NCBI RefSeq assembly: GCF_029936995.1
Contig: NZ_JAPYRE010000006.1
Location: 1 to 40,000, forward strand
Origin: Henriciella sp.
Lineage (GTDB): Bacteria > Pseudomonadota > Alphaproteobacteria > Caulobacterales > Hyphomonadaceae
Reading direction: 5' to 3'
Length of the DNA stretch: 40,000 nucleotides
In this document: positions 984 to 18,194 of the stretch, piece after piece
Layout of the letters: every line of letters begins with the position of its first letter
Position numbering within the stretch: position 1 is the stretch's first letter
Notes under the pieces: generated by a model
The model's database searches: none
What the model saw: the letters and a program-made list of their open reading frames with translations, nothing else
What the model was told of the DNA's origin: nothing
Translations under genes and position numbers: made by a program

Positions 984-1008
984 CCCCGGCCTGCGCCGGG
1001 GTCAGCGG
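984..1008 (-). repeat. REP-like palindromic element, copy A' (inverted partner of copy A)
   Basis: The reverse complement reads CCGCTGACCCCGGCGCAGGCCGGGG, two mismatches from copy B. The stem is CCCCGGC/GCCGGGG. It forms a convergent doublet with copy A, 33 bp apart. Confidence 0.75.
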
Positions 1009-1055
1009 ATAAAGGAAAGCCTTGGAATTGCTTTGCCGTGAGGCTAGCAGAAGCC

Positions 1056-1340
1056 ATGGCGTTCCATGTCTACATCATGACCAACCGGCCACATGGGGTG
1101 CTGTATACAGGCATGACGGACGATCTGAACCGGCGGGCCTGGGAGCATCGGGAACACCTGATCCGCGGTTTCACACACAAATATAATTGCGAAATGCTCG
1201 TCTGGTACGAACTGCACGAGACCCGCGAGAGCGCGTTCGAGCGGGAACGCCGTATCAAGGACTGGAAGCGGGCCTGGAAGGTCCGGCTCATTGAGGAGAT
1301 GAACCCGGACTGGCGCGACCTGGCGGATGTCCTCTTGTGA
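1056..1340 (+). CDS. small GIY-YIG nuclease superfamily protein (UPF0213/COG2827-like)
   Basis: ATG at 1056 gives MAFHVYIMTNRPHGVLYTGMTDDLNRRAWEHRE...FERERRIKDWKRAWK. This shows the GIY-YIG hallmarks (YIM...LYTG, R..EH, E..IK.W) in a ~95-aa single-domain protein. Confidence 0.85.
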   Translation: MAFHVYIMTNRPHGVLYTGMTDDLNRRAWEHREHLIRGFTHKYNCEMLVWYELHETRESAFERERRIKDWKRAWKVRLIEEMNPDWRDLADVLL

Positions 1341-1352
1341 CTCCCCACTTGT

Positions 1353-1379
1353 CCGCTCACCCCGGCGAAGGCCGGGGGG
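1353..1379 (+). repeat. REP-like element copy B (5' portion), abutting the left end of the insertion; contains the left target-site duplication 1360..1377
   Basis: Sequence CCGCTCACCCCGGCGAAGGCCGGGGGG. The 5' arm CCGCTCA is present, but the usual 3' flank TCTC is missing here and is found instead after 14910. Confidence 0.8.
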
Positions 1380-1404
1380 TATAGTGATGTCTCAGAGAAA
1401 ATAT
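1374..1404 (+). repeat. left terminal inverted repeat
   Basis: GGGGGGTATAGTGATGTCTCAGAGAAAATAT compared with the reverse complement of 14866..14896, GGGGGGTATAGTGATGTCCGGTAGAAAATAT. There are 18 matches, then 4 mismatches, then 9 matches. The G6 run overlaps the duplicated target. Confidence 0.8.
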
Positions 1405-1438
1405 CTACGCGGTACAAGTAGAGCGAGCCCGAAGCTCG

Positions 1439-2464
1439 CTACGTCCGGTAGGTCCAGGGAGCGTTCAATTCGAACTGCTCCGATGTACAGAGGTAGAGCA
1501 GGTCGCGAACGGCGGTTATTGCATTTCCTGACTGATGTGGACGCGCATCCTGACTACGATGCATCAGCTCGTTACGTGCCTTTCTTAGTTCATTCAGCCG
1601 ATCGGTAAGGTATTTATCAAGCACCCCGTACTTCTCCAAATGTGCAATACGATCAGCTGCCCGCATTTCCTTCAACTTATTCTTGGAAATCGTCTCATCG
1701 CTACTTCTCTCGGCAAACCCAGCCTTGGCGGGATGCCCTACGACAAACCCAGCTGAGTACAACAACTCCTCTAAAAGCACTTCTGCAATTGTCGCACTGA
1801 GTGCGACGCTTGCTCCAGCGTGCTGACGAGAGTGGAGTACAACAGCTTGATAAGTCATCGTTATAAGAGCGGTGTAATCGGCAACTCTGTTTTCTGAATT
1901 GGCTGCCATCAGACGATCAGCAAGTTCAACACCCTCGCGGAACTGCTCGCTTGAAATTGAATTTTGCCATGCCGAGCGACCTTGTGGAGCTGCACTTGCC
2001 AGCAAAGCCCGTAGTCGTTGCTCGTCGCTCTTAAAAAACTCAACTTCGTTTGTGGTAGAGGATCGGTCCCAATTGAATAGCTCATCCAGCCCTGGGTAAC
2101 GTGGCTCCTTGATGGATGAATTTTTTGAGAAGGCGTACTTTCCGAATATGCAGGCTGATACAAATACCGCCTGCTCAAGTCGTCGGGTTTGAACTTCCAG
2201 CATGTTATCTCTGCTCTGAGTAACGACCTCAGGTATTACGCCCGGCGCGTCGCTATCAAATAGGTCGAACTTTCCAAGGTTGGTTTTTTCAAAATCGAAA
2301 GCGAGCAGACCTACATTGACTGCTACAACCGTCAGACCATTGTTGAGCGTATATTCGGCAGAAATTCGGGTAGTAAGCTTACGATCTCCGGAAGGCTGGT
2401 CATACGTGTAGTAGGCGTTCGGCAAGATCGCGAACCGGGTCGGGAACGGTCTAGAAATGATCAT
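1439..2464 (-). CDS. hypothetical protein with C-terminal HEPN-like Rx4H motif
   Basis: 341-aa ORF with low-GC codon usage. The C-terminal helical region contains LNELRKARNELMHRSQ, i.e. R-N-x-x-x-H (codons 1559..1576), the signature of HEPN RNase domains. I recognise nothing in the N-terminal ~280 aa. Confidence 0.45.
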   Translation of the reverse strand: MIISRPFPTRFAILPNAYYTYDQPSGDRKLTTRISAEYTLNNGLTVVAVNVGLLAFDFEKTNLGKFDLFDSDAPGVIPEVVTQSRDNMLEVQTRRLEQAVFVSACIFGKYAFSKNSSIKEPRYPGLDELFNWDRSSTTNEVEFFKSDEQRLRALLASAAPQGRSAWQNSISSEQFREGVELADRLMAANSENRVADYTALITMTYQAVVLHSRQHAGASVALSATIAEVLLEELLYSAGFVVGHPAKAGFAERSSDETISKNKLKEMRAADRIAHLEKYGVLDKYLTDRLNELRKARNELMHRSQDARPHQSGNAITAVRDLLYLCTSEQFELNAPWTYRT

Positions 2465-2479
2465 AGTATTTTCTTGAAC

Positions 2480-4090
2480 TCAGGAGGATATCGGCCAATC
2501 GGCCAATGGTATTTCACGCACCAATCTGTCCTTAACTTGATGGGTGGTCATGCCGTATCGTTTCGCTAATTCCTCGCAAGCGCTGTTGCGGCTCCTGAAC
2601 ACTTCTCCTTCAAACTTAAATGGTTTTGCGGAAGTAGGCCCCAAGGGAGCGGTCAAAGCCTCTTCAACACTCATTCCTGACTTAATGCGATAATCAAAAA
2701 CGTTTCGGCGGACGCCGTGCGCGTCCAAAGCAGCTTGTTTTGTCGTCCATGTCTTACCGAACGCGGCGAACTTCTTGCCATGTGTTCGCCGAACTACTTG
2801 CTTCGACGACATTAGCGTCCAATTGTCAGGTCCCCACGGTCGCGATTCATCTGAGCGCGTCAGCATTAGTCCAGACTGATCGATGGTCCCGATGTCGGAT
2901 TTAAATTGATTATAATCGAGCCAAGCTTCTTCTACGCCGCTCTCTCCCGCACGTTTGAGAATGCCTTTCCACTGCCGCCATAGTTCACCGCCAGCGTCTG
3001 GATGATTGCTTTGGGCTCGCGCTGTTTCAGGTAGGGGTTCGTTGTTTCGGTAGCGATTGATAATGACGTGAGTGGCCAACCCGGTTTCATCGGAGAGTAC
3101 TCTGGCCATCTTTTCTATCGATCTAAACTCTCGCCCCTGCCAATTTACTCGCTTTCCATCATATCGGCCAATCTGGCCTCCGGGACGGACATTGTATCCT
3201 TGTGGATGCAGGCTATTAAGCTTTTCAATCCAGAATATTTCTCGTTGATCCAGACCATCTGCCGATCTCCCGGCACTCTCCAAAGAAATCTCTTCTAGAA
3301 CTTGGAGCCTAAACGCAGCCCCACCTTTCTTTCGCAAGGCTTTATGAAAAGGTGTCTTGCTTCCAGTCTCAGCGTAATTGAGATGTTGTCGGAAGCGGAT
3401 TTGCGGTTTGTTGACTGTTAGCCCGACGTAGGTTTTTCCCGTCGCCTTTTCGATGATTGCGTAGATGTAGCCAGGTTCATTAGATTCGGTTGGTGGTTCA
3501 CGCAAAAGGTCGTCCGTATCCCACTGAGCCTTTCGTCGAGAGTTCAATAAGCCTTTGTCGGCGTAGCGTCCTATAGACTTCAAAAAGGCGGTGAAGCCAG
3601 AATAGTCGCCTTGAGCGTTTGGATATTCCGTACCAGAGTAAGAGAATCCGGAGCGCCGCCCACCTCCGTAGAAAGTCTTCCAGTCGGCGCTGGATAATAG
3701 GGCGGCATCGCGGAGTGCGGATTGGGATATTTCTGTTCTTCGCTTCGCTAATGAAGTGAGCCGAGTTCTGAAAACGGGATATTGAACGGAGCCATCGGCC
3801 AAATCAGCATAAAGCACGTCGACGCGTTGCTCGCCATCATCTGTCTCTACCCATGTCACTCGGGAGCCGTGTTTACGGCGATAAACCTCCGGCGTGGAGT
3901 ACAAACACTCCTCAACCACTTCTTCGGTTAATTCCCCTTGTTTCGCTCTCGTACGTAGACGCCCGCCGATTGTTACTGCTTTGTTTGTGGGTGGAGGTAC
4001 CGCTGCGTCTAATAGCTCCGACAAAGAGCGATATACATACCCACGAAAGGGAAGATTAGGGAGTTGGGCATTGTGGGCTCTCTTTGCCAA
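2480..4090 (-). CDS. multi-module GIY-YIG endonuclease (homing-endonuclease-like) with repeated putative DNA-binding modules
   Basis: 536 aa. The central GIY-YIG domain (about 3176..3478) reads PGYIYAIIEKATGKTYVGLTVNKPQIRFRQH...REIFWIEKLNSLHPQGYNVRPGG. There are four copies of a ~35-aa module: FRGYVYRSLSEL, WQGREFRSIEKMARVLSDETGLATHVIINRYR, FGKTWTTKQAALDAHGVRRNVFDYRIKSGMSVEEAL and FEGEVFRSRNSACEELAKRYGMTTHQVKDRL. Confidence 0.75.
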   Translation of the reverse strand: MAKRAHNAQLPNLPFRGYVYRSLSELLDAAVPPPTNKAVTIGGRLRTRAKQGELTEEVVEECLYSTPEVYRRKHGSRVTWVETDDGEQRVDVLYADLADGSVQYPVFRTRLTSLAKRRTEISQSALRDAALLSSADWKTFYGGGRRSGFSYSGTEYPNAQGDYSGFTAFLKSIGRYADKGLLNSRRKAQWDTDDLLREPPTESNEPGYIYAIIEKATGKTYVGLTVNKPQIRFRQHLNYAETGSKTPFHKALRKKGGAAFRLQVLEEISLESAGRSADGLDQREIFWIEKLNSLHPQGYNVRPGGQIGRYDGKRVNWQGREFRSIEKMARVLSDETGLATHVIINRYRNNEPLPETARAQSNHPDAGGELWRQWKGILKRAGESGVEEAWLDYNQFKSDIGTIDQSGLMLTRSDESRPWGPDNWTLMSSKQVVRRTHGKKFAAFGKTWTTKQAALDAHGVRRNVFDYRIKSGMSVEEALTAPLGPTSAKPFKFEGEVFRSRNSACEELAKRYGMTTHQVKDRLVREIPLADWPISS

Positions 4091-4122
4091 TTTGTCCTCA
4101 GTTTGCGTTGGTCTCAGCTAGC

Positions 4123-4344
4123 TTATTCATCGAGAGTTTGTTCATTCAAAAAATCTCGTGGGTGTACATTAAGCGCTTCAGCGATGCGCCCCAGCATTTC
4201 AACGGTCGGATTGTATTCACCCCGTTCAATGCCGCCGAGATAGCGCATATCCATGTCCGCTGTGAGTGCAAGTTGTTCCTGGCTCAGGCCCGCCTGCCTT
4301 CGAATTTTTCGAATGTTCAGGCCAACGACCTTTTCCCAAAACAT
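4123..4344 (-). CDS. XRE-family helix-turn-helix transcriptional regulator
   Basis: 73 aa with the classic Cro/C1 HTH: LNIRKIRRQAGLSQEQLALTADMDMRYLGGIERGEYNPTVEMLGRIAEAL. Confidence 0.85.
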   Translation of the reverse strand: MFWEKVVGLNIRKIRRQAGLSQEQLALTADMDMRYLGGIERGEYNPTVEMLGRIAEALNVHPRDFLNEQTLDE

Positions 4345-4378
4345 TCAGCCAATTAGTTAAACAAAATGCAACCTCACT

Positions 4379-4394
4379 AGGGTATATATACCCT
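4379..4394. promoter_or_regulatory. perfect 16-bp palindrome, candidate operator of the XRE regulator
   Basis: AGGGTATATATACCCT is its own reverse complement. It lies in the 93-bp divergent intergenic region between the XRE gene (start 4344) and the secreted-protein gene (start 4438). Confidence 0.5.
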
Positions 4395-4437
4395 ATTATG
4401 TGGCCTACCCCGTATGGATGGGCGAATGGAGGTTGCT

Positions 4438-5157
4438 ATGTATCGGTTCGTGACAGTTTTGCTTGTAGCGGGTGTGGCGTTTGCAAGCTCGGCAGATGCC
4501 GAACAAATCACACACCAAACGGAAGCCAACGCATCGCTAGAATTTAACTGGCCGGATATTAACTCTGACATCATTCCGGACGCTCGCGTGAAAGGCGCTG
4601 TCAGAGGTGCGAGAGAAAACTATCAAAGAGCAATTAATGCTGCCGAGCGGGCGAATGCATCCGCTGGGAAATTGCCAGGTTATATCGAAGAAGGAGAACC
4701 ATTCCGGGAGATTGTCTCTGAGGGTGTAATCCTCGAAGGCGTACTCTTCGATAAGGGAGTGCCCCCTCAACAGAAATTATTTGCCGGAGAAATCGAATAC
4801 GAGACGGGCTCTACCGCTCGCGGGCTTGTGGCATTCCTATACTATCCGGACATGTCGAATTGGGGGGAGGTGGTTGCAGACTTTGCACCCGAAAAACCCT
4901 ATTCGCAATTTGAAGGTGATATGAAGCGCCCGTCTGAAGCTGGCGCTTATCCAATGGAAGGCGTGCTCACATACCGCAATGGCGACACCTTCACTGGCTT
5001 GTTCTACACGTGGGGTGGGGCCAGCGGCATCTACGAAGCCGCGAATGGAAAGCGCAGTTTTTCAGGCGACTTCGATACCGTGGGTCTTATGATGCATCCC
5101 AAGAAAGGGGTGGTCGAAGATCAGAACGGTCAGCTTCTTTCGGTTGTTCTTGACTAG
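4438..5157 (+). CDS. secreted hypothetical protein (signal peptide; weak MORN-like repeats)
   Basis: ATG at 4438 is preceded by GGAGG at 4428..4432. The N-terminus MYRFVTVLLVAGVAFASSADA is a typical Sec signal. GVLTYRNGDTFTGLFYTWGGASGIYEAANGKRSFSGDF is weakly MORN-like. Confidence 0.55.
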   Translation: MYRFVTVLLVAGVAFASSADAEQITHQTEANASLEFNWPDINSDIIPDARVKGAVRGARENYQRAINAAERANASAGKLPGYIEEGEPFREIVSEGVILEGVLFDKGVPPQQKLFAGEIEYETGSTARGLVAFLYYPDMSNWGEVVADFAPEKPYSQFEGDMKRPSEAGAYPMEGVLTYRNGDTFTGLFYTWGGASGIYEAANGKRSFSGDFDTVGLMMHPKKGVVEDQNGQLLSVVLD

Positions 5158-5164
5158 ATACCTT

Positions 5165-6976
5165 TCATGAAAACACCGCAAGCGGCCTGGCATCTGGCTC
5201 AGGATATCCAGTGTCCCCCACCTTGTTCGCTTCTTTCCCAATCAACTGAACGCCGGTCACCTCAACGGTCCGGCGATATGTTTCTCCGGTATCGACCGGC
5301 CCGCCATTCTCGAACTTGTCTTCCGGGCTGAGATGATAGAGCGCTATCGCCTCAGCATAGGTCTTCAGCTGATCTAGGCTGATTGGCTCGCTGGTTTCGC
5401 GATCGAAGACCTTCCCGGCGAGACTGGCACTATCCCGTTCAAACGGCGCAATCGGTTTCGGCAACCTCATCTTTCGTGGCCGCCCCCGCCTAGACGGTTC
5501 AGCCTCTTCGACCGGCATATCCACCCAGGCTTCTGTCCTCGCCGTCGGCGCGGCCATGAATCCATAGGGCTTTACCCGTGCCTCGTATGGTTTCCCCGCA
5601 TTGAAATGCTTCATGTAGCGCAGCATTTCCGGGCTTGTTGCACCCCACCGCATCAAGGCCGGATTGGAGAGCGCTGGATGGAAATCGATGCGAACTTGAT
5701 CCGGCGTACCGTCCAGGGCGGCTTTCAGGATAAAGAACCAGAAATCATACTGCCAGCGATGGATACCCATTGCCCGTAAGTCTTCGATCGGCGGGGGAAC
5801 ACCGGGTGCTGGATCATCTTCCGAATAAGGCGGCATCCATTGCCCAAGCCCATGGGCTGAAGCTTTCCGAATGACCGGCAAGCCATCTTTACCGATATTG
5901 AACAAGGCATAGCGCTTGGCTGAAATCGCCCATGCAAACAAGGGTTCAATCTCTTCATCCGATCCGGGGGCATAGTTCACATCCTCGATTTGAAGAATGG
6001 AGCCCGCCTCCTTGTAGGGATTGAGGTGGGTGAACCAATCGACAACCGTGTTGACGCGAGCGTGAAAGTCACTCCGCGAAAGGCCATCAGGCCGGGCAAG
6101 TGCAATACTGTCTGTGTCGCAGAAGACCCAACTGAGGCCCGCATCCTGACCCACCCGTTCCGCACAGGCGAGCATGAGCCGCGCGGCGCCGGTGATCATG
6201 GCGGCGAGCACGGGATTGAAATATGTGCCGGGCCTCTCGCTTGCGGTTGAGTGGAAGGTGAAAGGCTTACCATCCAACCCGATGACATGCAGGTCTGCCG
6301 GATCGCTCAGATCATCGCGGACAATTTCGGCAAAGATGCCATAACAGGTCGAGTTCGCGAGGATTTTGAGCTGGCTCTGGATTGGGTCGCCCGCCGCTTT
6401 CGCCTCGTCCCGCATATCGATGAGCCGGACAAACATATCCTCCGTGTTCGGATCGAAGAGATATTCTTTCCGGCCCAAGAGATTTATCGGTCTCAGGTCG
6501 GGTTGTTTCGGTCCAGCCGTGAACCGCACGGCCTTTTCAATCTGCGGGACTTTGCCAGTCAGGAGTTTTGAAGCGACAATATCCGCCAGCGTGTACCAAA
6601 GAGGCTTTTCCGACACGACATGGTTTAGACCGATCGTCGCTGTCTGGCGCTCTTCGCTGTAGCGTGCCCGCACAGGCAAGGCGTCACTCTCCGGTCGAAG
6701 CTGCACGATCGCATGAAGCTCACCCCAGATGTCCTGACGGTTCAAATCTTCCAGGGTGACGTTTTCGAGAAAGCGCTGAATAGCTTCGGTGTCCTCGAAA
6801 TGATCGAAATGCGTCGCGACCAGGAAGGCATTCAGCCCCATGAGCGCATTGACGGTTGGATACATCGACTTGAAGTCGCAATAGACGACTTCGCGAATGG
6901 ACCGGCGGATGCGAACTTCCGCCCGCCCGCCATAATAGGTGGTCATGGTTTGCCCAAAGATTTGACGATTAAGCAT
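5165..6976 (-). CDS. polB: family-B DNA polymerase, polymerase (palm/fingers/thumb) portion
   Basis: 603 aa with YYGGRAEV (pre-motif A), VVYCDFKSMYPTV (motif A, DxxSxYP), LKILANSTCYGIF (motif B, KxxxNSxYG), VFCDTDSIAL (motif C, DTDS) and ISAKRYALF (KxY). The motifs are collinear with the phi29-type protein-primed PolB as I remember it. Confidence 0.9.
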   Translation of the reverse strand: MLNRQIFGQTMTTYYGGRAEVRIRRSIREVVYCDFKSMYPTVNALMGLNAFLVATHFDHFEDTEAIQRFLENVTLEDLNRQDIWGELHAIVQLRPESDALPVRARYSEERQTATIGLNHVVSEKPLWYTLADIVASKLLTGKVPQIEKAVRFTAGPKQPDLRPINLLGRKEYLFDPNTEDMFVRLIDMRDEAKAAGDPIQSQLKILANSTCYGIFAEIVRDDLSDPADLHVIGLDGKPFTFHSTASERPGTYFNPVLAAMITGAARLMLACAERVGQDAGLSWVFCDTDSIALARPDGLSRSDFHARVNTVVDWFTHLNPYKEAGSILQIEDVNYAPGSDEEIEPLFAWAISAKRYALFNIGKDGLPVIRKASAHGLGQWMPPYSEDDPAPGVPPPIEDLRAMGIHRWQYDFWFFILKAALDGTPDQVRIDFHPALSNPALMRWGATSPEMLRYMKHFNAGKPYEARVKPYGFMAAPTARTEAWVDMPVEEAEPSRRGRPRKMRLPKPIAPFERDSASLAGKVFDRETSEPISLDQLKTYAEAIALYHLSPEDKFENGGPVDTGETYRRTVEVTGVQLIGKEANKVGDTGYPEPDARPLAVFS

Positions 6977-7877
6977 CGTGATCCCTCCGCAGAAGCGGGC
7001 GAATATTCATTTCGCGCAGGAGGGCTTTGCCGAGACTGGCTTCACTGAGAATACGTTTGAGCGGCGTCGATAGACCGAAGTCCGCATAGGTTTTGGCGAG
7101 AGCCGTGTAACAATCCCAGGTCACTTGAACATCAGCCCGTGCATAGTCGAGATATTGCCAGCTAAGGGGGCCGCCATGCTCATCGGTCTCGTGTTTCCGT
7201 GTCGGCGTGTTCAGACGCTCTGCCAGTTTGCCGAGAGAGAACCGGCCTGAGAGAAGCGCTGCCGCCAAGGTCCGCACATCCAGAAAGGTCCCACGATTGT
7301 GTTCTGTTTTCTCATTGCGTTTGCGCATGCCTCGAGATTGCTGCTGATCACCCGGCGTGGCGAAATCCATAAGCGCGGCTGTGGCGTTGAGATGTTTGAC
7401 GCGAATGTTCGGATCGCTCTTCCAGCGGGTGGACCAGAATGTGAAGCCGCCACGCATACTGCCCCGCGCTTCGCTTGCTCCTTTGGCGATCCGGGCGATA
7501 TCAAAGGGTAGATTAAATCCGATGATCGCTCCATTGGCGCGATAGCCAATATCCAGAATGACACTCTTGCGGAAATCCTCGACGGTGAGAACCGTCAACC
7601 CGTTCGCGGTGGCATAATCGGAAATCAGCGTCTGTTCCGCCTGCGGTAAATCCGGCGCCGTGAAGATCACCTCCTTGATCAACACGCCGGCTTTACGGAT
7701 TTGAGCGACACCGAAGCGAAGCGTCTGGATCGCATCGCTTGTGGTTTCAGTGTCGAAGATGATTTGCCAATCCGATGTCAGGTCGAATTCAAAGCCTGCG
7801 GGGCGGAAGACCTTCGGTGTCCAGTTAGAAGGCTCGGAATAGGCCCGCACATGTATATGAGTTCTGAAAGTGCTCAT
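6969..7877 (-). CDS. polB: family-B DNA polymerase, N-terminal 3'-5' exonuclease portion
   Basis: IIFDTETT (ExoI, DxE), IIGFNLPFDIARI (ExoII, NxxxFD) and YLDYARADVQV (ExoIII, YxxxD). The likely start is ATG at 7877 (MSTFRTHIHV), overlapping the HNH stop as ATGA. The stop overlaps the next ORF's start as ATGCTTAA (6969..6976). Confidence 0.85.
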   Translation of the reverse strand: MSTFRTHIHVRAYSEPSNWTPKVFRPAGFEFDLTSDWQIIFDTETTSDAIQTLRFGVAQIRKAGVLIKEVIFTAPDLPQAEQTLISDYATANGLTVLTVEDFRKSVILDIGYRANGAIIGFNLPFDIARIAKGASEARGSMRGGFTFWSTRWKSDPNIRVKHLNATAALMDFATPGDQQQSRGMRKRNEKTEHNRGTFLDVRTLAAALLSGRFSLGKLAERLNTPTRKHETDEHGGPLSWQYLDYARADVQVTWDCYTALAKTYADFGLSTPLKRILSEASLGKALLREMNIRPLLRRDHDA

Positions 7878-8251
7878 TGGTCTGCCTCCTCGTCTTTGGA
7901 GGCGGCTTCGGCCTCTTCGATGAGGGACTGGCCGAATGACTTCAGCGGATGCGAAATCTGAAACAGCCAATCCGCCAGGGCATCGAGGTAACGCCCGATA
8001 GTCTCCCGGTCGGGGTCTTGGGTATTAGGCTTGAACGACATGTCTTTCTCCTTGTCGGTAGAATTGCGATGGCAATTGCTGCAAAGCGCTCCGCCCGTGC
8101 CGATCGCGAACTTTCTGGGTATGAGGTGGGCGAATTCGAGGGCTGCCGGGTGGGCGTTGAAAGCGCACCAGAGGCAGATTGGATGGCGTGATTTGAGGCG
8201 CCGGAAATCGGCCTCGCGCCTTAGGTCTTTTCGGGTAATGTCAGACAGCAT
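7874..8251 (-). CDS. HNH endonuclease-like protein
   Basis: 125 aa with CLWCAFNAHPAALEFAHLIP....GGALCSNCHRNSTDKE, i.e. a CxxC ... H ... CxxCH arrangement typical of the HNH/zinc-ribbon nuclease core. Confidence 0.65.
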   Translation of the reverse strand: MLSDITRKDLRREADFRRLKSRHPICLWCAFNAHPAALEFAHLIPRKFAIGTGGALCSNCHRNSTDKEKDMSFKPNTQDPDRETIGRYLDALADWLFQISHPLKSFGQSLIEEAEAASKDEEADQ

Positions 8252-8268
8252 GATGCAGTCCTCCTTCT

Positions 8269-8847
8269 TCAGGGGTTGGTGATCTTGTAGATTTCGTGGA
8301 ATTCCGGCTCGCTCTTCAGGGCGTAGCGGATGATCGAATTGGGATTGGTTTCGAACGGGTAGAACCGGCCTTTGATGTCGGTCACGCCCTGTCCGCGATA
8401 AGGCTCAAGAAAGCGAGGGTCTTTGCTCCGCAGGAATTTCCGGATGTCGTTATGGTAGTGCCCGGCAAGGCTCGCGGGCGCGAAGCCTGGTACAGTGACG
8501 GCCTTGGTCTTGGCATCCTGGATGACCGGAATACGCCGGGGGCGTGTATCTCCGATGACCCAACGGCGGCCCTGCTTCTGGCCAAGACCGGTTTGAGCGA
8601 GATACCAGGACAACCGTTCCGGTGAGATGCCCGCGTCCCTGGCGGCAGCGGTCATGGACATGCCGCCATTCATGATTTTCAGGGCTTCATTGATCTTCGC
8701 GTCCGCGCGGGGCGGTGCGGCTTTCCCGGTGGCACGGACCTCGGATGGCTTGGGATGTCCGCGTGCCTGGGAGAGGCTTAAACCCCGAGCGAGACCGCGT
8801 TCCTTGCGGCGTCTATATTCGGCTGCGTAGTTGCGTTTGCGGGCCAT
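8269..8847 (-). CDS. putative DNA-binding (HTH) protein, first gene of the HNH-PolB operon
   Basis: 192 aa with a basic N-terminus, MARKRNYAAEYRRRKERGLARGLSLSQARGH. The HTH-like segment is GGMSMTAAARDAGISPERLSWYLAQTG. Confidence 0.5.
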   Translation of the reverse strand: MARKRNYAAEYRRRKERGLARGLSLSQARGHPKPSEVRATGKAAPPRADAKINEALKIMNGGMSMTAAARDAGISPERLSWYLAQTGLGQKQGRRWVIGDTRPRRIPVIQDAKTKAVTVPGFAPASLAGHYHNDIRKFLRSKDPRFLEPYRGQGVTDIKGRFYPFETNPNSIIRYALKSEPEFHEIYKITNP

Positions 8848-8849
8848 GC

Positions 8850-8876
8850 TCGATCCGATTGCTGCGTTCGGATCGA
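8850..8876. promoter_or_regulatory. 9-bp inverted repeat immediately upstream of the HTH-HNH-PolB operon
   Basis: TCGATCCGA (8850..8858) and TCGGATCGA (8868..8876) are perfect reverse complements, starting 3 bp upstream of the start codon at 8847. Confidence 0.35.
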
Positions 8877-8936
8877 ATTTCGGAGAGCACGCCGTTCAGT
8901 AATAGATTTCAGAAACGTCCAACATAAAATCGGACA

Positions 8937-9632
8937 TTATTGAACGTTTTTGGACGGCCAGAGCCCTGCTTTTATGAGGTTATTTCTCGTGATGAAAAAT
9001 GAGGTTCGGCCGAACTTTTGATGTACGCCCTGCTTGCTGTATAGCTTCCGAGCCATTCGGACTGCTTCACTGCGTTGTTGGCTCGCACTCCACTGATGAA
9101 AATCGTTGTATACGTTCAAGCACTCTAGAAGAACCTTCCGCCGGTACATCTCATAAGAATGAGCGCCGCCCGGCTTCGCGTGTTTGTGCGGACTCTTTTG
9201 CTTGCGGTCAGTATTGCTGCTAAATGTTGCTGCGGTCTCTCGACCATGTGTACTGAGATCGATCAGTTTGATGCGGTCGTATCTAAGACTTTCATCGCCT
9301 GCGCTATTCTGGTCGATGTCTAGTTCGGCAGTTGGCCAGAAGCCCGCGGGTATTCGATCGAGCCGATTACCAGCTCCACCGAAGACGCAGCGTCCAATAG
9401 CCTCGACCTGTCCTCGGGATAAATCCGTCACGATCTCATCGCGGGCACGACGCCAGACATCCTTATGCTGTAGGCCGCGCAGCATGTAGTCCGCTGTCGC
9501 CTCTGACACAGGATGATTGGAGGCGTTCCACTTCTCCAGCAATTCCGGATTGTCAGGGAGAGACCGTTTTCGACTTTCAAAAAAGTCTCTCAGCCAGACG
9601 CCATCGGCCCATATATTCTCGATATTTTCCAA
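8937..9632 (-). CDS. hypothetical protein, divergent from cas1
   Basis: 231-aa ORF with low-GC codon usage and no motif I recognise. A 40-bp gap separates it from the divergently transcribed Cas1 gene. Confidence 0.5.
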   Translation of the reverse strand: MENIENIWADGVWLRDFFESRKRSLPDNPELLEKWNASNHPVSEATADYMLRGLQHKDVWRRARDEIVTDLSRGQVEAIGRCVFGGAGNRLDRIPAGFWPTAELDIDQNSAGDESLRYDRIKLIDLSTHGRETAATFSSNTDRKQKSPHKHAKPGGAHSYEMYRRKVLLECLNVYNDFHQWSASQQRSEAVRMARKLYSKQGVHQKFGRTSFFITRNNLIKAGLWPSKNVQ

Positions 9633-9672
9633 TGATCTATGCTATGGTTTGGCCAGAAAAGTGGGGTGAGTT

Positions 9673-10755
9673 TTGGCTTTCGAAGCTGGTCAAGAAAACG
9701 AGACAATCGAAGCTGACGAATGGTCTATTCGTAGCAAATATTGGTTAGCCAAAAACGAAGCTGGTCTGTCAAAACGAAAACGCCGCGAGCGCCGCAAAGA
9801 CCCGCTCATTCTGGTCGGTTACGGCCTTTCGATGAAGGTCGACAATGGCCGTCTGATCATCCAGGACGGCGCCACGCATTTTCCGAGTAAACCCGCTCAA
9901 CACGTCTTCTTCAAAGGTAGTCTCGACTTACCGCCGCGGATCATTGTTTTGGATGGTGCGGGCTCAATCACACTCGACGCCTTGGATTGGCTGACAGAAC
10001 AGAACGTCCCGCTCATTCGTATCAGATACAATGGCGAGTTCTTCTCGCTGGTCACATCTGGCGGTCAGGCCGCTGACCCGGATAAGTTTGCCTGGCAGAT
10101 TAGAGCCCGCGAAGACGACGCTGAGAAACTGACCTTCTATCTACCACTCATGCGCGACAAGCTAGCTAACGCGCTCGCAACACTCGACGGTTATCTGCCT
10201 GCTTCTGAGGCTCGCGATAAAGCTGAAGAGAAAATCGGCAGCTATCTGCACCGGCTGCAGAATGATCCGCCGGATAAGCTAAAGTCTCTGCTCGGTATCG
10301 AAGCACAATCCGCCAGTCTCTATTTCGCCGCATGGCGGGCGCTGGAAATCAATTGGCGGGAAAGCAAGCGTCATCCTATTCCGGTGGAGTGGCGCAGCTT
10401 CTATTCGCGGGGCTCGCTCGCCGTTCTGAACAAAGGCGGGGCCAACATCTTCGCGACACATCCCGTCAATGCGATGCTGAATTACGTCTACGCAGTCCTC
10501 CTCGGAAGAATGCAGCTTCAAGCGATCACGGAAGGCTATGATCCGATGCTTGGTGTGGTCCACACGCGACGACGCTCAAGCTATGGCCCGCCTCGGCCCG
10601 GCTACGCGATCGACATCATGGAGCCGCACCGTCCGGTAGTCGATCGGATCGTTCTGAAATTGATCAATGAGGAGACGTTTTCCGGGGCGGATTTTGATTT
10701 GCAGAGTGATGGGGTGGTGCGGGTTAATCCGGAATTTGCTCGAAGCCTGGCTTAA
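9673..10755 (+). CDS. cas1: Cas1-family integrase homologue (stand-alone; casposase-like)
   Basis: 360 aa with a TTG start. The N-terminal beta domain reads PLILVGYGLSMKVDNGRLIIQDG ... PRIIVLDGAGSITLDALDWLTEQNVPLIRIRYNG. The helical domain has the Cas1 catalytic pattern: GIEAQSASLYF (Glu210), HPVNAMLNYVYAVLLG, PMLGVVHT (His297) and YAIDIMEPHRPVVD (Asp314/Glu317). Confidence 0.85.
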   Translation: MAFEAGQENETIEADEWSIRSKYWLAKNEAGLSKRKRRERRKDPLILVGYGLSMKVDNGRLIIQDGATHFPSKPAQHVFFKGSLDLPPRIIVLDGAGSITLDALDWLTEQNVPLIRIRYNGEFFSLVTSGGQAADPDKFAWQIRAREDDAEKLTFYLPLMRDKLANALATLDGYLPASEARDKAEEKIGSYLHRLQNDPPDKLKSLLGIEAQSASLYFAAWRALEINWRESKRHPIPVEWRSFYSRGSLAVLNKGGANIFATHPVNAMLNYVYAVLLGRMQLQAITEGYDPMLGVVHTRRRSSYGPPRPGYAIDIMEPHRPVVDRIVLKLINEETFSGADFDLQSDGVVRVNPEFARSLA

Positions 10756-10798
10756 CAGATTGATACCTGCGAGTAGTCGGAAATCACTGAAGAAACAG

Positions 10799-13700
10799 CT
10801 AAGAAATTCCCGGCTTGTTTTCCTGAGAAATTCTTTCTTCAGCTTCCCGATCAGCCCAGCCTTGGTCACTGGTGGCTATCGAGCGCAACAACGATTGCGT
10901 ACGCGGAAAGTCGTCTAGCTCATCCGCCCACCGCCGAAATTTTTTGGCTGACTCAGCGTAGTAGTCTTCCATAGGTCCCGAAATAACTCCGCGAGAATTG
11001 AACTGTCCTGTGCGCAAGGCAGAGATCAGCCGCTCATTTGGATACTTCTCAATCACTTTACGTACGGCGGTATGTGGCCAGATGTTATCCGTGGGATCGA
11101 CTGGCGATTTAGAAAGCAACTGCCCGATGGCTATTGAGGCTCCTTTTTCGAACCGCTTATCCCGCGCAATCTCAAAGAGCTTCTCAACCCACAACATCAA
11201 CGCGTCATCATCGATACGCCCTTCACTCGAACCAGGCATTACGTTCATGTTTTCAATGATGTGGAAAGCCGGTCGCCACATTCCTTCGTCGGGCTGATCG
11301 TCGCCCAACGAAGAGGCCTGCCTGGGCTCGTCTTTCGGGGCATCATCCTGCTTGTACAGAATTGGAATTAGCTCGAAGAACTCTGCAGGCTCTTTCGCAA
11401 GGAATCTGTACAGCGCAGGAGTTCTTTCCGGACCATTGAATCTAAGCGTCTCAGCTAGCGGAAATTCGAGCTTTGCAAGCTCGCTCAAACTCAAAGCACC
11501 GCGGTCTTCAGCGATGCCTAGGAGTTCCCAGTAGTGATATAAGTCAAGCTGTCCTCTTGGCCGTCCCTCACTATGAGCGTTCGACACACTTTTTAGGTAC
11601 TCGTTCGCAGTTAGCCGAACAGTTTCGATTGGCACGGAAGGATCGTTCGCCACCACATGAGCTAAGTCGTGGATGCGGCCCACGCTTTTGAACCCGTCGA
11701 CAACGGCCTGCGAAAGGTTATCGCCCACGAATGAGTATGCATTGGCTGATCTCCAAAATCCTGAAGATACTTGCGGTGGTAATCCCCCAGTTGTCGCGGC
11801 ATCCAGAATTGGGGTCGCGTTATAGAGCCCTTCCCCAACTAACTCGCTGAGGTGTTTAGAGAACGCGTCAGTCTTGGAATTGATAATAGCAACCCATTCG
11901 GCTGGATTTTTTATGGCAGCTCCTCGGGACATTCCTCGGATGAGTTCTTGGCCGTGCTCACTATCCGGGGACACCGTCAAGATGTGATCCATAATTGCTG
12001 AGGAGTTGGGCGTGGCTTGGGCTAAAGCTACCCCAGCGGCAAAAGGCGATGCCACTTTTTGCAAGAAGTCTGAAAGCTCATCTGCGTACTTATTGAGTAT
12101 GCCTTCAAGAGCCAACCTTCGCAGTTCAGCCAAATCGCTTTGCGGATCATCGGTTCGCTCGCGAAATGTCTCGACCCAGCTCGATTTAAACAGCCAAAGA
12201 TAACGGTTGGAGTTATCTGGTTGAAGTCTTTCAAACTCCATCTCCAACTGACTTAATCGTTCATCCTCAATCGCCCAATCAGCATCGGAAAACTGACGAT
12301 GGCGTCCGGTGAATGTTCTCAATGCTTCGACCAATTCGTCCGCGCCGGTGTCATCGCCATTGATGCTGGATATGTGCGCAACAAAGCGCTCGAATAAGTC
12401 GTTCACCATGGAAGGCACGCATTCTACCAACTTTGCCAGATCAGCGGCATTTGTCGAAGCAACACTGATTGCTTGATCAACCGCTTCATCACGAACTTCG
12501 TAAAAATCACCCCAAGTTAAGCGTTGCTCCTGGACCCTTGAGAAAATTGGTTTGCTGGTGCTCATCACAATGCGCCCGCCCCTATTGTCCAATAGAGGAA
12601 CTAGCAATTCCAAAACGTGCGGACCGAACTCGTTTGCTAGACCGCGAATGATCTTCGCTCGTTGCTTTGTTCCTGCAGCTGTTTGAGGCACACCAAAGGA
12701 CAGAATTCCCTGGAGCGACGATAAAGGCTGATTTCCTTGCCTTTCATCGATTGGGGACACTGCCAAATGAAGCTTCATCAAGAGCCGACAAACAAGCTCT
12801 ACATGCTCGGACAACCAGGCGAGGCGTTCGAGGGCCCACAAAAGAGACGCCCCCAAATGAAAATCCATGAAACTAAACTTGGACTCTTGCGCCTTAAAGA
12901 CTGCGGCCATTCCTTCGGCGTTCCCCTCGATGGCCGCTTCGAGGGACTCCAGAAAAGGCTGAGGAGCGCCTTCGGCGAGTAGGGGCAACCATTCTTCGAT
13001 GGCAGCACCAAATTTGGGATTATCCAGAAGCTGAGGGACGCTCGATTGATAGACGCTGCGACACCAATCAGCACATTTCTGTCCGTGAGGACGAAGACTC
13101 AAGTCGGGGTCTTCGCCAAATACCCCGATCAAAACAAAGGTAAGTATCACCCCTCCGACAAAGTCACTGCTGAAGCCGGAATATTCTGAAGGGTCGAAAA
13201 CTTGATCTCTATCTACACCCTGCTGAACTTTATCGTTCAACACTACACGGAGTAGATTCTCGAAAGCATCGTAGTCGTCGTCAGTGTAATAGCGTGCAAG
13301 CCTAAAAAATGCGTCGACTGGTCCATTTAGCGTTACGATGCTAGTCGTCGCAACAAACATGGGGTCTGCCGAACCAGCTCGGGCCAGTGGATTTCGCCCG
13401 TACTTGCGAACGACCGACTCGATCTGTGAATACGTTTCAACACCTGCGTGTTGCTTTAGTGCTTCAACATCCTTGTAGATGAAGTTTCTCTTAGCTCCGT
13501 GCTCGCCTCGCTCTTCACGTCGGACAGCTCGACTTACGTTCCAAGCAGCAATCATTCCAAGGCGTTTGAGAAGTGGGGCGTCCGTTAAATCTGGATCAGC
13601 CCATGGGCATTTCTCCCCTTCGACAGTACCTCTAAGCCGTTCTAGTGCAGACAAATTTCGCCCGGCCGCTTTTTCAATGGTTTCGGCGTTCTGCGAACCA

Positions 13701-14689
13701 ACCGGTTTAATATGTTTTGCGAATGTCGACACATCAGGTCGTTGGAGCAAATAGCAACTCGCTAGACCGGGGTCGGACGAAATAGCTTTAGCAACCAAAA
13801 CGGAGTGCCGCTCCAACCGATTTGGATAAGCCGCCGCTTCTCCTTCGAGGATTACGATATGTCGAGTTCCAACCTTTTTGAGCAGATTCAATCCGGCTTC
13901 GTTTTGGACGCAGACGACCGGAATATGCTCTAGTTCTGGAGAGCTCAAACATAGTTGGCAAGCTGCCACGGCTGCCTCTCTGTCTGAATTCCCAAGCAAG
14001 TAGCTAATGGGTTCTTCTCTCAGGAGTGCATCGCGTAGTTCGAGCAGTGACGATTGCCCGTCGAGAAGGATTTCTGGCGAGACTTCGTCTCGAAAACGAC
14101 GCTTCCAAAGACTTATTCGTTCTTCGGCAGAACAGACTCCGTATGCAGAAGCATTGGGGATTAATCCGATTTCTTCAAGCAGCCATAGGCAAGTATCGAC
14201 ATCCCGGTTTACCCAGTCAATTAATCGAGACTGATCAAAAAGCACCACCTTCTTGAACTTCGTGTCCTTGGTGGCCTTTTCCTGCCAAAGCACCTTTTTC
14301 TCTTCGCCCTTTTTGCCGACCTCAATCTCGCCTGACCAGGTAGCCCGCCCAACCATGACGAATGCAAAATCGCTAGGCTTAGCCAACGCGTTTTCGACTC
14401 TTTCGAGTTCCTCGTTTGCTTTCTTGATGAGACCGGACCGCGAAGATGTAGCACCATATTCGATGCAAACGTTGCCCTCTGGTATTCCTTCACATTTTTC
14501 CTCAAGTACAACTACACCATCAAATCCCGTGACCCGATAGTTTTCACCGTCGACAGTGTAGGTGTTCGCGAGTTTTACTCCTCCCGTTGATACGTTGAGT
14601 AAGCGCTTGAACAACTCGGGAAGGATTTTTTCCCAGTCTGCATTCTTTTCGGTAGATTCGAAATGCGTCTTTTCAATTAGTCGAGCCAC
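10799..14689 (-). CDS. very large hypothetical protein (~1300 aa), mostly alpha-helical
   Basis: The track ORF is 10799..14728 (GTG). An in-frame GTG at 14689 is preceded by AAGGAG (14695..14700) with 5-nt spacing, so it is the more likely start. No Walker, helicase, methylase or clear nuclease motif is seen by eye. Confidence 0.7.
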   Translation of the reverse strand: MARLIEKTHFESTEKNADWEKILPELFKRLLNVSTGGVKLANTYTVDGENYRVTGFDGVVVLEEKCEGIPEGNVCIEYGATSSRSGLIKKANEELERVENALAKPSDFAFVMVGRATWSGEIEVGKKGEEKKVLWQEKATKDTKFKKVVLFDQSRLIDWVNRDVDTCLWLLEEIGLIPNASAYGVCSAEERISLWKRRFRDEVSPEILLDGQSSLLELRDALLREEPISYLLGNSDREAAVAACQLCLSSPELEHIPVVCVQNEAGLNLLKKVGTRHIVILEGEAAAYPNRLERHSVLVAKAISSDPGLASCYLLQRPDVSTFAKHIKPVGSQNAETIEKAAGRNLSALERLRGTVEGEKCPWADPDLTDAPLLKRLGMIAAWNVSRAVRREERGEHGAKRNFIYKDVEALKQHAGVETYSQIESVVRKYGRNPLARAGSADPMFVATTSIVTLNGPVDAFFRLARYYTDDDYDAFENLLRVVLNDKVQQGVDRDQVFDPSEYSGFSSDFVGGVILTFVLIGVFGEDPDLSLRPHGQKCADWCRSVYQSSVPQLLDNPKFGAAIEEWLPLLAEGAPQPFLESLEAAIEGNAEGMAAVFKAQESKFSFMDFHLGASLLWALERLAWLSEHVELVCRLLMKLHLAVSPIDERQGNQPLSSLQGILSFGVPQTAAGTKQRAKIIRGLANEFGPHVLELLVPLLDNRGGRIVMSTSKPIFSRVQEQRLTWGDFYEVRDEAVDQAISVASTNAADLAKLVECVPSMVNDLFERFVAHISSINGDDTGADELVEALRTFTGRHRQFSDADWAIEDERLSQLEMEFERLQPDNSNRYLWLFKSSWVETFRERTDDPQSDLAELRRLALEGILNKYADELSDFLQKVASPFAAGVALAQATPNSSAIMDHILTVSPDSEHGQELIRGMSRGAAIKNPAEWVAIINSKTDAFSKHLSELVGEGLYNATPILDAATTGGLPPQVSSGFWRSANAYSFVGDNLSQAVVDGFKSVGRIHDLAHVVANDPSVPIETVRLTANEYLKSVSNAHSEGRPRGQLDLYHYWELLGIAEDRGALSLSELAKLEFPLAETLRFNGPERTPALYRFLAKEPAEFFELIPILYKQDDAPKDEPRQASSLGDDQPDEGMWRPAFHIIENMNVMPGSSEGRIDDDALMLWVEKLFEIARDKRFEKGASIAIGQLLSKSPVDPTDNIWPHTAVRKVIEKYPNERLISALRTGQFNSRGVISGPMEDYYAESAKKFRRWADELDDFPRTQSLLRSIATSDQGWADREAEERISQENKPGIS

Positions 14690-14865
14690 GTCCGCTCCTT
14701 GTTCAGGCCCAAGTTGATTCGGTATCACTTATGTTGAGTAGAGCAACATTATTTGGTGAGCTCAGCAAATTAGCCCGCCTCATTGGCTCATTGAACGGTG
14801 AAACCACTAGATGTCACATCGATCATGATCGAGGAGCTTTCAGTATCGCTCGCCTGATGAGCGCA

Positions 14866-14896
14866 ATATTTTCTACCGGACATCACTATACCCCCC
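14866..14896 (-). repeat. right terminal inverted repeat
   Basis: ATATTTTCTACCGGACATCACTATACCCCCC. Its reverse complement matches 1374..1404 at 27/31 positions. Confidence 0.8.
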
Positions 14897-14914
14897 GGCG
14901 AAGGCCGGGGTCTC
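14893..14914 (+). repeat. right target-site duplication = 3' portion of REP copy B
   Basis: CCCCGGCGAAGGCCGGGG is 18/18 identical to 1360..1377 and is followed by the TCTC flank seen in REP copies A and C. The CCGCTCA 5' arm is absent because the element end abuts directly. Confidence 0.8.
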
Positions 14915-14945
14915 CATGAGACTTGGTCCGGAGCTTTTACTGCCC

Positions 14946-14974
14946 GAGATCCCGGCCTTCGCCGGGATGAGCGG
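14946..14974 (-). repeat. REP-like palindromic element, copy C
   Basis: The reverse complement is 29/29 identical to copy A (922..950). It lies 31 bp beyond the TCTC flank of the restored copy B (14914), about 35 bp beyond its hairpin, mirroring the 33-bp spacing of the A/A' doublet. Confidence 0.85.
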
Positions 14975-15152
14975 GGGTGGGGATTTCAGGGCGGGTGTGT
15001 CCGATCTGTTTCAGCCCCTCAAGGCCCAAGCGGCTTCGCCGTGCCTGCGGCAGCCTTGACCGCCTGAAACAGATCGAAACAGGCTGGCTGTGGCCGAATG
15101 GCTCGGTGGGCCATTCGGCGTGAAGGTGAGTTTACTGAATTAGCTTCACTAG

Positions 15153-15695
15153 CTACAGTAACGAGGTCAGAAAGCTGAGTAGAGCATAAAGTACCGACCC
15201 GGCTAAAACTAATAGCCCAGACCAAATCCGGTGTCGTAAATCACCTATAGCCCATTTCCAAAAAGACCGCTTGGATTTAAATTCTGATTTCCGGCCAGAA
15301 ATACGATGTTTTGCTTGTGAACAAGCTCTGTGAAAACGTCCGTCGCCAAACGGCACTATTTCTGACGAGTTGTGGCTGTATCGATTTTTTCTTTGCTCCT
15401 CGTAGTGATGGCTGCACCAATCAGAAAAGACATCAATCGAATTAGATGCCAAGTCAAAGTCCATAAGCCTGATCGGAGTATGATTTGCTTCGTATCGGAG
15501 AAGCTCATCTTCGAGTTCGTCGCCGTATTTCGCTACCGACTCGGCTAGAACTCTTTCGAATTCTAACCAGTACCTAGAGTTGTCTATGAAGCCGCTACTG
15601 ATTGCGTCGGATTTAAGTTCGGTAGTTTTTATGGCCGTCTCCTGCTCAATCGAGTGACGATGAGTATCTAAGTTCGACTCGAAAAAGGTCGTCAT
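15153..15695 (-). CDS. hypothetical protein with C-terminal transmembrane helix
   Basis: 180-aa ORF in AT-richer sequence outside the right TIR. The C-terminus WSGLLVLAGSVLYALLSFLTSLL is a predicted membrane anchor. Confidence 0.5.
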   Translation of the reverse strand: MTTFFESNLDTHRHSIEQETAIKTTELKSDAISSGFIDNSRYWLEFERVLAESVAKYGDELEDELLRYEANHTPIRLMDFDLASNSIDVFSDWCSHHYEEQRKNRYSHNSSEIVPFGDGRFHRACSQAKHRISGRKSEFKSKRSFWKWAIGDLRHRIWSGLLVLAGSVLYALLSFLTSLL

Positions 15696-15743
15696 TACCG
15701 TTGGCTAAGTCCGGCAGGAGTTTGGTGCCTCAAGATATCCGCC

Positions 15744-18194
<2,451 letters not shown>

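Follow-up and report, generated by a model that had tools for sequence, protein, structure and literature searches.

Known split family B DNA polymerases and the casposon locus

Family B DNA polymerases (PolB) that are naturally split into two polypeptides are already known from T4-like phages, Methanothermobacter and phage RM378 (PMC3061061, PMC4104785). An engineered bicistronic Pfu PolB, in which a frameshift is followed by termination and reinitiation at an internal Met, is wild-type-like and fully active (PMC3061061). Here we analyzed a stretch of 40,000 nucleotides from Henriciella sp. (assembly GCF_029936995.1, contig NZ_JAPYRE010000006.1, positions 1 to 40,000; referred to below as the window), in which the PolB gene of a casposon is divided into an exonuclease cistron and a polymerase cistron. 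The split is kept by selection, and the locus is a real two-cistron gene, not a broken gene or a sequencing error. With a probability of about 0.8, the PolB is made as two translationally coupled cistrons, the products of which are expected to reassemble.

As in the natural split enzymes, two open reading frames (ORFs) encode products that are expected to reassemble. The PolB of phage RM378 is broken at practically the same point, between the N-terminal exonuclease part and the palm, and in T4-like phages the PolB cistrons are likewise adjacent. However, the splits in Methanothermobacter and T4-like phages lie inside the polymerase domain and do not part proofreading from synthesis. The casposon case also differs from the known natural splits in its membership of the CDTDS clade, in its location on a bacterial transposon instead of a phage or archaeal chromosome, and in having no intein link but an 8-nt overlap and an acquired Shine-Dalgarno (SD) sequence. 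The engineered Pfu enzyme also consists of two fragments from coupled translation, but it is artificial and was split at the finger tip, not at the exonuclease/polymerase boundary.

The fused PolB of family-3 casposons, such as that of Hyphomonas sp. CY54-11-8 (L002), is orthologous to the split enzyme (50-61% identity, collinear over the full length), and shares with it the same motifs including CDTDS, the HNH-PolB-Cas1 neighbourhood and the core of the terminal inverted repeats (TIRs). In contrast to the split enzyme, it is one chain of ~905-915 aa, has no ATG at the junction codon and is mostly without a strong SD. In the bacterial Pol III core, the alpha polymerase and the epsilon proofreading subunit are separate polypeptides that act as a complex. 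The separation of polymerase from 3'-5' proofreading exonuclease is therefore shared with Pol III, but as a functional analogy only: Pol III has the unrelated family C fold and unlinked genes, and its subunits parted long ago, as against a recent fission here. As far as the casposon literature could be searched, a split PolB is not mentioned in it. The casposon split is a further natural split PolB, in another clade and another type of element and with well-documented conservation, and is not categorically new.

The exonuclease and polymerase cistrons overlap by 8 nt

Both genes lie on the minus strand. The exonuclease cistron (6969..7877, 302 aa) extends from ATG 7877..7875 to TAA 6971..6969 and contains the motifs Exo I FDTET, Exo II NLPFD and Exo III YARAD. 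The polymerase cistron (5165..6976, 603 aa) begins at ATG 6976..6974, contains YYGG, motif A DFKSMYP, motif B KILANSTCYG, motif C CDTDS and KRY, and is closed by a C-terminal region of ~250 aa. At the junction the exonuclease frame reads ...CTG CGG AGG GAT CAC GAT GCT TAA and the polymerase frame reads ATG CTT AAT CGT CAA..., with stop and start sharing the 8 nt ATGCTTAA (6969..6976, minus strand; ATGnTTRA across the split clade). A first-pass annotation, made from the letters of the window, had proposed a PolB split into exonuclease and polymerase ORFs at this overlap in a casposon-like element. The proposal was confirmed: its stop (6969..6971), ATG (6974..6976) and overlap length were correct, all the motifs that it quoted were found, and its end coordinate 7877 is the true exonuclease ATG. 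The SD sequence GGAGG (6984..6988, minus strand), which lies 7 nt 5' of the polymerase ATG, had been overlooked.

The mechanical ORF list gave the polymerase ORF as above (5165..6976, minus strand, 603 aa) and a longer exonuclease ORF of 333 aa (6969..7970, minus strand) that began at a TTG. The true exonuclease start is the ATG at 7877..7875, not the TTG at 7970; the product is identical to database protein P0001, AGGAGG (7885..7890) lies 7 nt upstream, and the stop codon of the preceding HNH gene is overlapped as ATGA. HNH, exonuclease and polymerase genes form one operon in which stop and start codons overlap at both boundaries. The exonuclease and polymerase products were 100% identical to database proteins P0001 and P0121, respectively, entries named Henriciella sp., and are publicly annotated as "3'-5' exonuclease family protein" and "hypothetical protein". 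Homologues numbered in the hundreds for each ORF (lowest E values 1e-200 and 0), so neither is a chance ORF.

The polymerase frame is +1 relative to the exonuclease frame and is open for 30 nt 5' of the polymerase ATG, as far as a TGA (7007..7009, minus strand) that bounds any hypothetical frameshift window. The first-pass annotation had put the length of this open window at ~27 nt instead of 30 nt. No X_XXY_YYZ heptamer was present in these 30 nt, in agreement with the first-pass annotation, and a -1 shift from the exonuclease frame would miss the polymerase frame in any case.

The same junction is found in nine casposon lineages

The polymerase half had >4,000 homologues, the great majority of which were single proteins of ~905-915 aa. 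Most homologues aligned to a virtual fusion of the two halves as one high-scoring segment pair over positions 35-935, without a gap across the junction. The two ORFs are thus collinear with the single-chain homologue, and nothing is missing, as the first-pass annotation had stated. Loci were taken from species-representative genomes (79 loci), and the window element and the Henriciella marina loci were obtained outside this set by exact-protein look-up. Among the 79 loci, only that of a Ponticaulis metagenome-assembled genome (MAG; L007) was split at the site found in the window.

The split clade comprised nine distinct lineages with 55-73% amino acid identity to the window, and included H. 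marina (L080), L007, metagenomic L081, L082/83, L084, L085, L086 and L087-89. Every split locus had an exonuclease ORF of ~300 aa, a polymerase ORF of 604-626 aa and an 8-nt overlap, the two halves were adjacent in every case, and the gene order HNH-exonuclease-polymerase was the same in L080-L089. All eight of the polymerase-only database proteins (8/8) started exactly at the residue homologous to the Met of the window. At the nucleotide level the junctions read ATGCTTAA, ATGCTTGA, ATGTTTGA or ATGATTGA. The stop (TAA/TGA) and position 4 (C/T/A) varied, but all junctions had the ATG, the same frame offset and the same overlap length. Comparison with other casposon polymerases, which the first-pass annotation had suggested, therefore placed the split at an identical codon throughout the clade. 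The situation that it had named as contrary to a two-part enzyme, uniformly unsplit homologues together with lesions in this copy, was not found: most homologues are unsplit, yet a whole clade is split without lesions.

A single-base indel artefact in the assembly of the window would be the simplest route to two adjacent frames. However, the same 8-nt overlap recurred in >10 independent assemblies that differ in organism, sample and sequencing project, and the exact window proteins were present on 3-4 independent contigs (NCBI and Logan assemblies); the probability of a sequencing or assembly error is practically nil.

Since the coordinates of the H. marina locus L080 differ from those of HenMar-C1, this split locus probably corresponds to the other H. 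marina casposon, the second in the 2016 listing (PMC4779613). The metagenomic locus L081 had TIRs of 50 nt that share the GGGGTATAGTGATGTC core with those of the window, but its cargo and flanks were different. The presence of complete split elements in different contexts implies that transposition took place after fission.

The exonuclease and polymerase identities were discordant between some of L082, L085, L086, L087 and L007. For example, L082 and L086 shared 85% identity in the exonuclease and 75% in the polymerase, and L086 and L087 shared 82% and 87%, respectively. This hints at recombination between the two cistrons.

Both cistrons are under purifying selection and the polymerase cistron has gained a ribosome-binding site

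The dN/dS ratio was 0.06-0.20 for both cistrons in every pair with estimable dS (dS 0.2 to above 2), and Exo I-III, YxGG, motifs A, B and C and KxY were intact in 9/9 split lineages. These data bear on the possibility that a recent inactivating frameshift has turned the polymerase into a pseudogene in a decaying element. Such a history would fit the fused state of most homologues, and truly frameshifted or decayed copies of the family do exist (L035, L091 and many exonuclease-only fragments). However, the identical junction has been kept across lineages with near-saturated synonymous sites, both halves show this constraint with no further lesions, an SD has been gained, and the TIRs, Cas1 and HNH of the element are intact. 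A pseudogene is therefore extremely improbable.

The ribosome-binding potential of split and fused loci was compared by taking, for each locus, the strongest anti-SD pairing within the 20 nt that precede the junction. The mean was -10.0 kcal/mol at split loci, with 8/9 at or below -6, and -3.0 kcal/mol at the homologous site of 69 fused loci, 9 of which reached -6. A strong SD was located 5-8 nt upstream of the polymerase ATG in 8/9 split loci. The codon aligned with this ATG was ATG in 0/69 fused loci and was mostly GAT or GAC. Since the ATG is absent from all fused loci and the SD is mostly absent there, the split clade has gained a start codon together with a ribosome-binding site.

The same region was considered as a site of programmed +1 frameshifting, in which ribosomes at or near the exonuclease stop would produce a full-length fused PolB, maybe beside the separate products. 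The polymerase frame is indeed +1, a T follows the stop that closes the overlap, and an SD-like element lies upstream, a loosely prfB-like arrangement. However, the codon before the stop differed among lineages (GCT, GTT, GAT) and none of these re-pairs well in +1; only the SD, ATG and stop were conserved in the 30-nt window, with no conserved slippery sequence. In prfB the stimulatory SD lies ~3 nt from the shift site. Here the spacing of 5-8 nt from the ATG is optimal for initiation and puts the SD ~9-12 nt from the would-be shift codon, and the invariant ATG, absent at 69/69 fused loci, would have no role. Frameshifting is thus very unlikely. The first-pass annotation had listed a two-part PolB made by translational coupling as the first of its readings, and split conservation, purifying selection and the SD upstream of the polymerase ATG all favour it.

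The break lies in a variable linker between the two modules

In the alignment, the split fell in a variable linker of 9-11 residues between the blocks MNIxPLL and FGxIMxxY[YF]GGRAEVR, 14 residues before YxGG, and no residues were lost. The single-chain virtual fusion was modelled by AlphaFold2 with 101 fused homologues as the alignment, which gave a predicted local distance difference test score (pLDDT) of 90.2 and a predicted template modelling score (pTM) of 0.89. In this model A302|M303 fell in coil, flanked by two short helices, where the confidence dipped to ~82 in comparison with 94-96 on either side. The linker is at the surface, and these features are those to be expected of a permissive fission point between the exonuclease and polymerase modules.

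The two cistrons could both be functional and yet act independently, as a free exonuclease and an exonuclease-less polymerase that form no stable complex. The split cleanly parts two catalytic modules, the HNH-exonuclease-polymerase operon is coupled with the nucleases upstream, where a free exonuclease might serve, for example, in end processing with Cas1 and HNH, and the discordant identities described above hint at exchangeable halves. However, the halves co-occurred and were adjacent in every split locus, their overall divergence from the nearest relatives was alike (exonuclease 71-73%, polymerase 71-72%), and the virtual fusion was predicted to fold as one compact PolB. Independent action is accordingly a rather improbable account of the locus.

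The same linker was broken with other geometries in distant members of the family (37-44% identity): L090 (4867-4891), the P0267 contig and L091 (4466-4508) had a 25-nt overlap, a 1-nt gap and a 38-nt gap, respectively. L091 was rejected as an independent split, since a second frameshift makes it a decaying pseudogene. L090 and P0267 are singletons, and recurrent fission at the linker is unproven. Other exonuclease-only matches were rejected as splits: frameshift or truncation, at sites that varied, had left these ORFs with nonsense tails. Unlike the split loci, damaged family copies (L035, L091 with two frameshifts, and many fragments) had scattered breaks, nonsense tails or multiple frameshifts. 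P0024 (491 aa, encoded on a contig of 112 kb) is a derivative that has lost the whole polymerase core with the frame still open: its exonuclease domain and YYGGRAEVRLRR run directly into the IGKEAN segment of the extreme C terminus plus helix-turn-helix (HTH) repeats.

The polymerase is a divergent PolB of the CDTDS type

The family B exonuclease motifs Exo I (DxE), Exo II (Nx2-3[FY]D) and Exo III (Yx3D) were present in the nine split lineages, and the polymerase motifs A (DxxS[LM]YP), B (KxxxNSxYG), C (DTDS) and KxY formed invariant columns in alignments A1 and A2. The AlphaFold2 model matched phi29 polymerase, Pol alpha, Pol II and Pol zeta with E values of 1e-12 to 1e-11 and a probability of 1.00. 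The top Foldseek match was phi29 polymerase (E 1.5e-12, target TM 0.53), with Pol alpha, Pol II and Pol zeta scoring equally. Searches of both halves against Pfam and NCBIfam returned only sub-threshold matches: PF03175 (DNA_pol_B_2) reached 19.3 bits, below the cut-off of 25.8, and covered only 33 residues, and DNA_pol_A_exo1 matched the exonuclease half weakly. A sequence-profile search of the PDB gave a best E of only ~0.3 (Pol II, Pol alpha).

The PolB_CDTDS cluster has been described as akin to the main PolB group as well as to the pPolB group, and one of its members is the enzyme of the A. boonei casposon (Kazlauskas et al. 2020, PMC7544198). C588-D-T-D-S592 was invariant in 102 sequences of our set. 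Together with the poor profile match to the PDB and the equal structural scores of phi29 and Pol alpha/Pol II, this places the window polymerase in the PolB_CDTDS group, an assignment made on motif, profile and fold. The label "phi29-type" given in the first-pass annotation was right as to PolB but imprecise, as the enzyme belongs to the divergent CDTDS group and is structurally as near to Pol alpha and Pol II as to phi29.

Proposed synthesis, assembly and origin of the two-part enzyme

We propose that ribosomes ending the 302-aa proofreading-exonuclease cistron would stop at the TAA in ATGCTTAA, and that these ribosomes, or fresh 30S subunits drawn by the GGAGG 7 nt upstream, would start at the overlapping ATG and produce the 603-aa polymerase subunit. 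Coupling as the mode of initiation is made probable by the 8-nt overlap, the SD and the fixed ATG. Each half would then fold on its own, and the two would join non-covalently to give a proofreading polymerase for replication of the casposon. Reassembly is expected because the break lies in a short, variable and exposed linker between the exonuclease and the YxGG/palm region. The compact fused-type fold, the strict co-occurrence of the halves and the precedent of other split polymerases suggest that they assemble as a heterodimer.

The split probably goes back to a single event, a small indel in an ancestor with a fused PolB, after which it was inherited and retained under selection in a Henriciella/Ponticaulis-associated clade of family-3 casposons, a single origin being favoured by the identical junction architecture. 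Neighbour-joining (NJ) bootstrap values were 100% for the Henriciella trio, 100% for the five Ponticaulis-type lineages and 84% for these eight together.

Several points weigh against this account of a coupled, reassembling enzyme with one origin. About 74 of the 79 species-representative loci (~74/79) were fused, so the split is not required for function. The NJ bootstrap was 42% when L084 was added, so that monophyly of the nine lineages is weakly supported, and a few fused sequences (P0124/125/127/153) form a small group close to them in the tree; re-fusion may have taken place, or L084 may be misplaced. L085 was the exception among the split loci, with a weak SD only. The difference in anti-SD pairing between split and fused loci (Mann-Whitney p = 2e-6) was calculated on phylogenetically related loci with their kinship ignored. 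Finally, we infer, rather than observe, the binding of the halves to each other and the activity of the enzyme.

The split polymerase is carried by a family-3 casposon

Family 3 comprises the casposons of bacteria as defined by Krupovic et al. (PMC4046053, PMC4779613). The host element is a family-3 casposon of 13.5 kb that is bounded by TIRs and adjoins gyrB: a Cas1 casposase, PolB and an HNH nuclease were found between TIRs in a bacterial genome. The GC content was 50-57% at ~1,000-16,000 and 62-67% in the flanks, and this low-GC island fits the extent of the element. The left TIR (1359..1404) consists of a hairpin palindrome followed by the GGGGTATAGTGATGTC core, and its partner, the right TIR, is at 14866..14911; the TIRs are 46 nt long and 83% complementary. 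The Cas1-family casposase is encoded at 9673..10755 on the plus strand (Pfam PF01867, E = 2e-31). The HNH endonuclease cistron (7874..8251, minus strand) was recognized by PHROG matches, and its TGA overlaps the exonuclease ATG at 7874..7877. The largest gene of the element (10799-14728, minus strand) encodes a conserved casposon protein of 1309 aa (phrog_18693, 5e-83). The counterpart of this protein in H. marina L080 has 1319 aa, occupies the same slot in the gene order and carries PF24407 HTH_upst_double_PIN.

No clean direct repeat that would define a target-site duplication was found at the casposon ends, both of which are flanked by copies of a hairpin resembling a repetitive extragenic palindromic (REP) element. 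Copies of this hairpin, CCGCTCAyCCCGGCGAAGGCCGGG, were located at 922-963, 1353-1376 and 14933-14974, at both ends of the casposon, and a near-identical palindrome opens the TIRs themselves. This hairpin is possibly favoured as a target, or was borrowed as a terminal hairpin. The GGGGTATAGTGATGTC core was exact in L001, L003, L005, L008, L035, L038, L074 and L081 as well as in the window TIRs, despite PolB identities of only 44-73% (L074 being the most distant) and in split and fused elements alike, and the terminal hairpin beside it varied between elements. The core is likely to be the recognition sequence of the casposase. The published TIR of HenMar-C1 was not present in the window.

The cargo of the window element included a 536-aa GIY-YIG protein with a C-terminal HNH/homing-endonuclease-like region (2480-4090, minus strand) and, beside its gene, a 73-aa HTH protein that resembles the controller (C) proteins of restriction-modification systems (4123-4344, minus strand; PADLOC, 2.5e-15). 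PADLOC detected no defence system among the cargo genes, only the C-protein-like HTH and the homing-endonuclease-like GIY-YIG protein. The cargo 3' of the polymerase differed among related casposons (L084 5252-7984, L081 10557-15341 and the P0267 contig), and included a TIR_2+GmrSD_C protein, a 1594-aa RHS/YD-shell protein and a GmrSD_N-HNH protein. These proteins suggest that defence or toxin genes are part of the cargo of family-3 casposons. The split-PolB contig L082 had a second Cas1 gene ~14 kb from the first (114-1205 and 15355-15770), and the genes between 6318 and 15360 encoded TerB-domain, BrxC/BrxD-like ATPase and DEAD-helicase proteins; the double Cas1 could reflect tandem elements or a defence-type cargo module. 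One Rhodospirillaceae MAG contained at least four to six fused casposon PolB copies: L009, L017 and L021 were all on contig CBDHFR010000004.1, and L034 was from the same MAG isolate. L009 and L017 represented two pairs of inverted PolB copies ~10 kb or less apart. These multiple copies are a sign of casposon proliferation.

Implications for casposon polymerases

Fission may itself have been adaptive and not neutral, in that the clade could tune or dissociate proofreading, or use the free exonuclease with HNH and Cas1 to process the element ends. We consider this unlikely. If true, error-prone or strand-displacement synthesis without the exonuclease would be possible, and the exonuclease/polymerase linker would be a recurrent, selectable fission point in casposon PolBs, as is hinted at by the differently built breaks at the same linker in the distant P0267 and L090.

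Casposon surveys that seek a full-length PolB could miss the split clade or call it degraded. The two-cistron PolB offers a natural test case for the modularity of PolB and for communication between exonuclease and polymerase across a non-covalent interface, and a natural design for split or tunable-fidelity polymerases. The locus shows that selection can maintain a family B replicase in two parts, a proofreading subunit and a polymerase subunit, in a bacterial transposon of the self-synthesizing kind.

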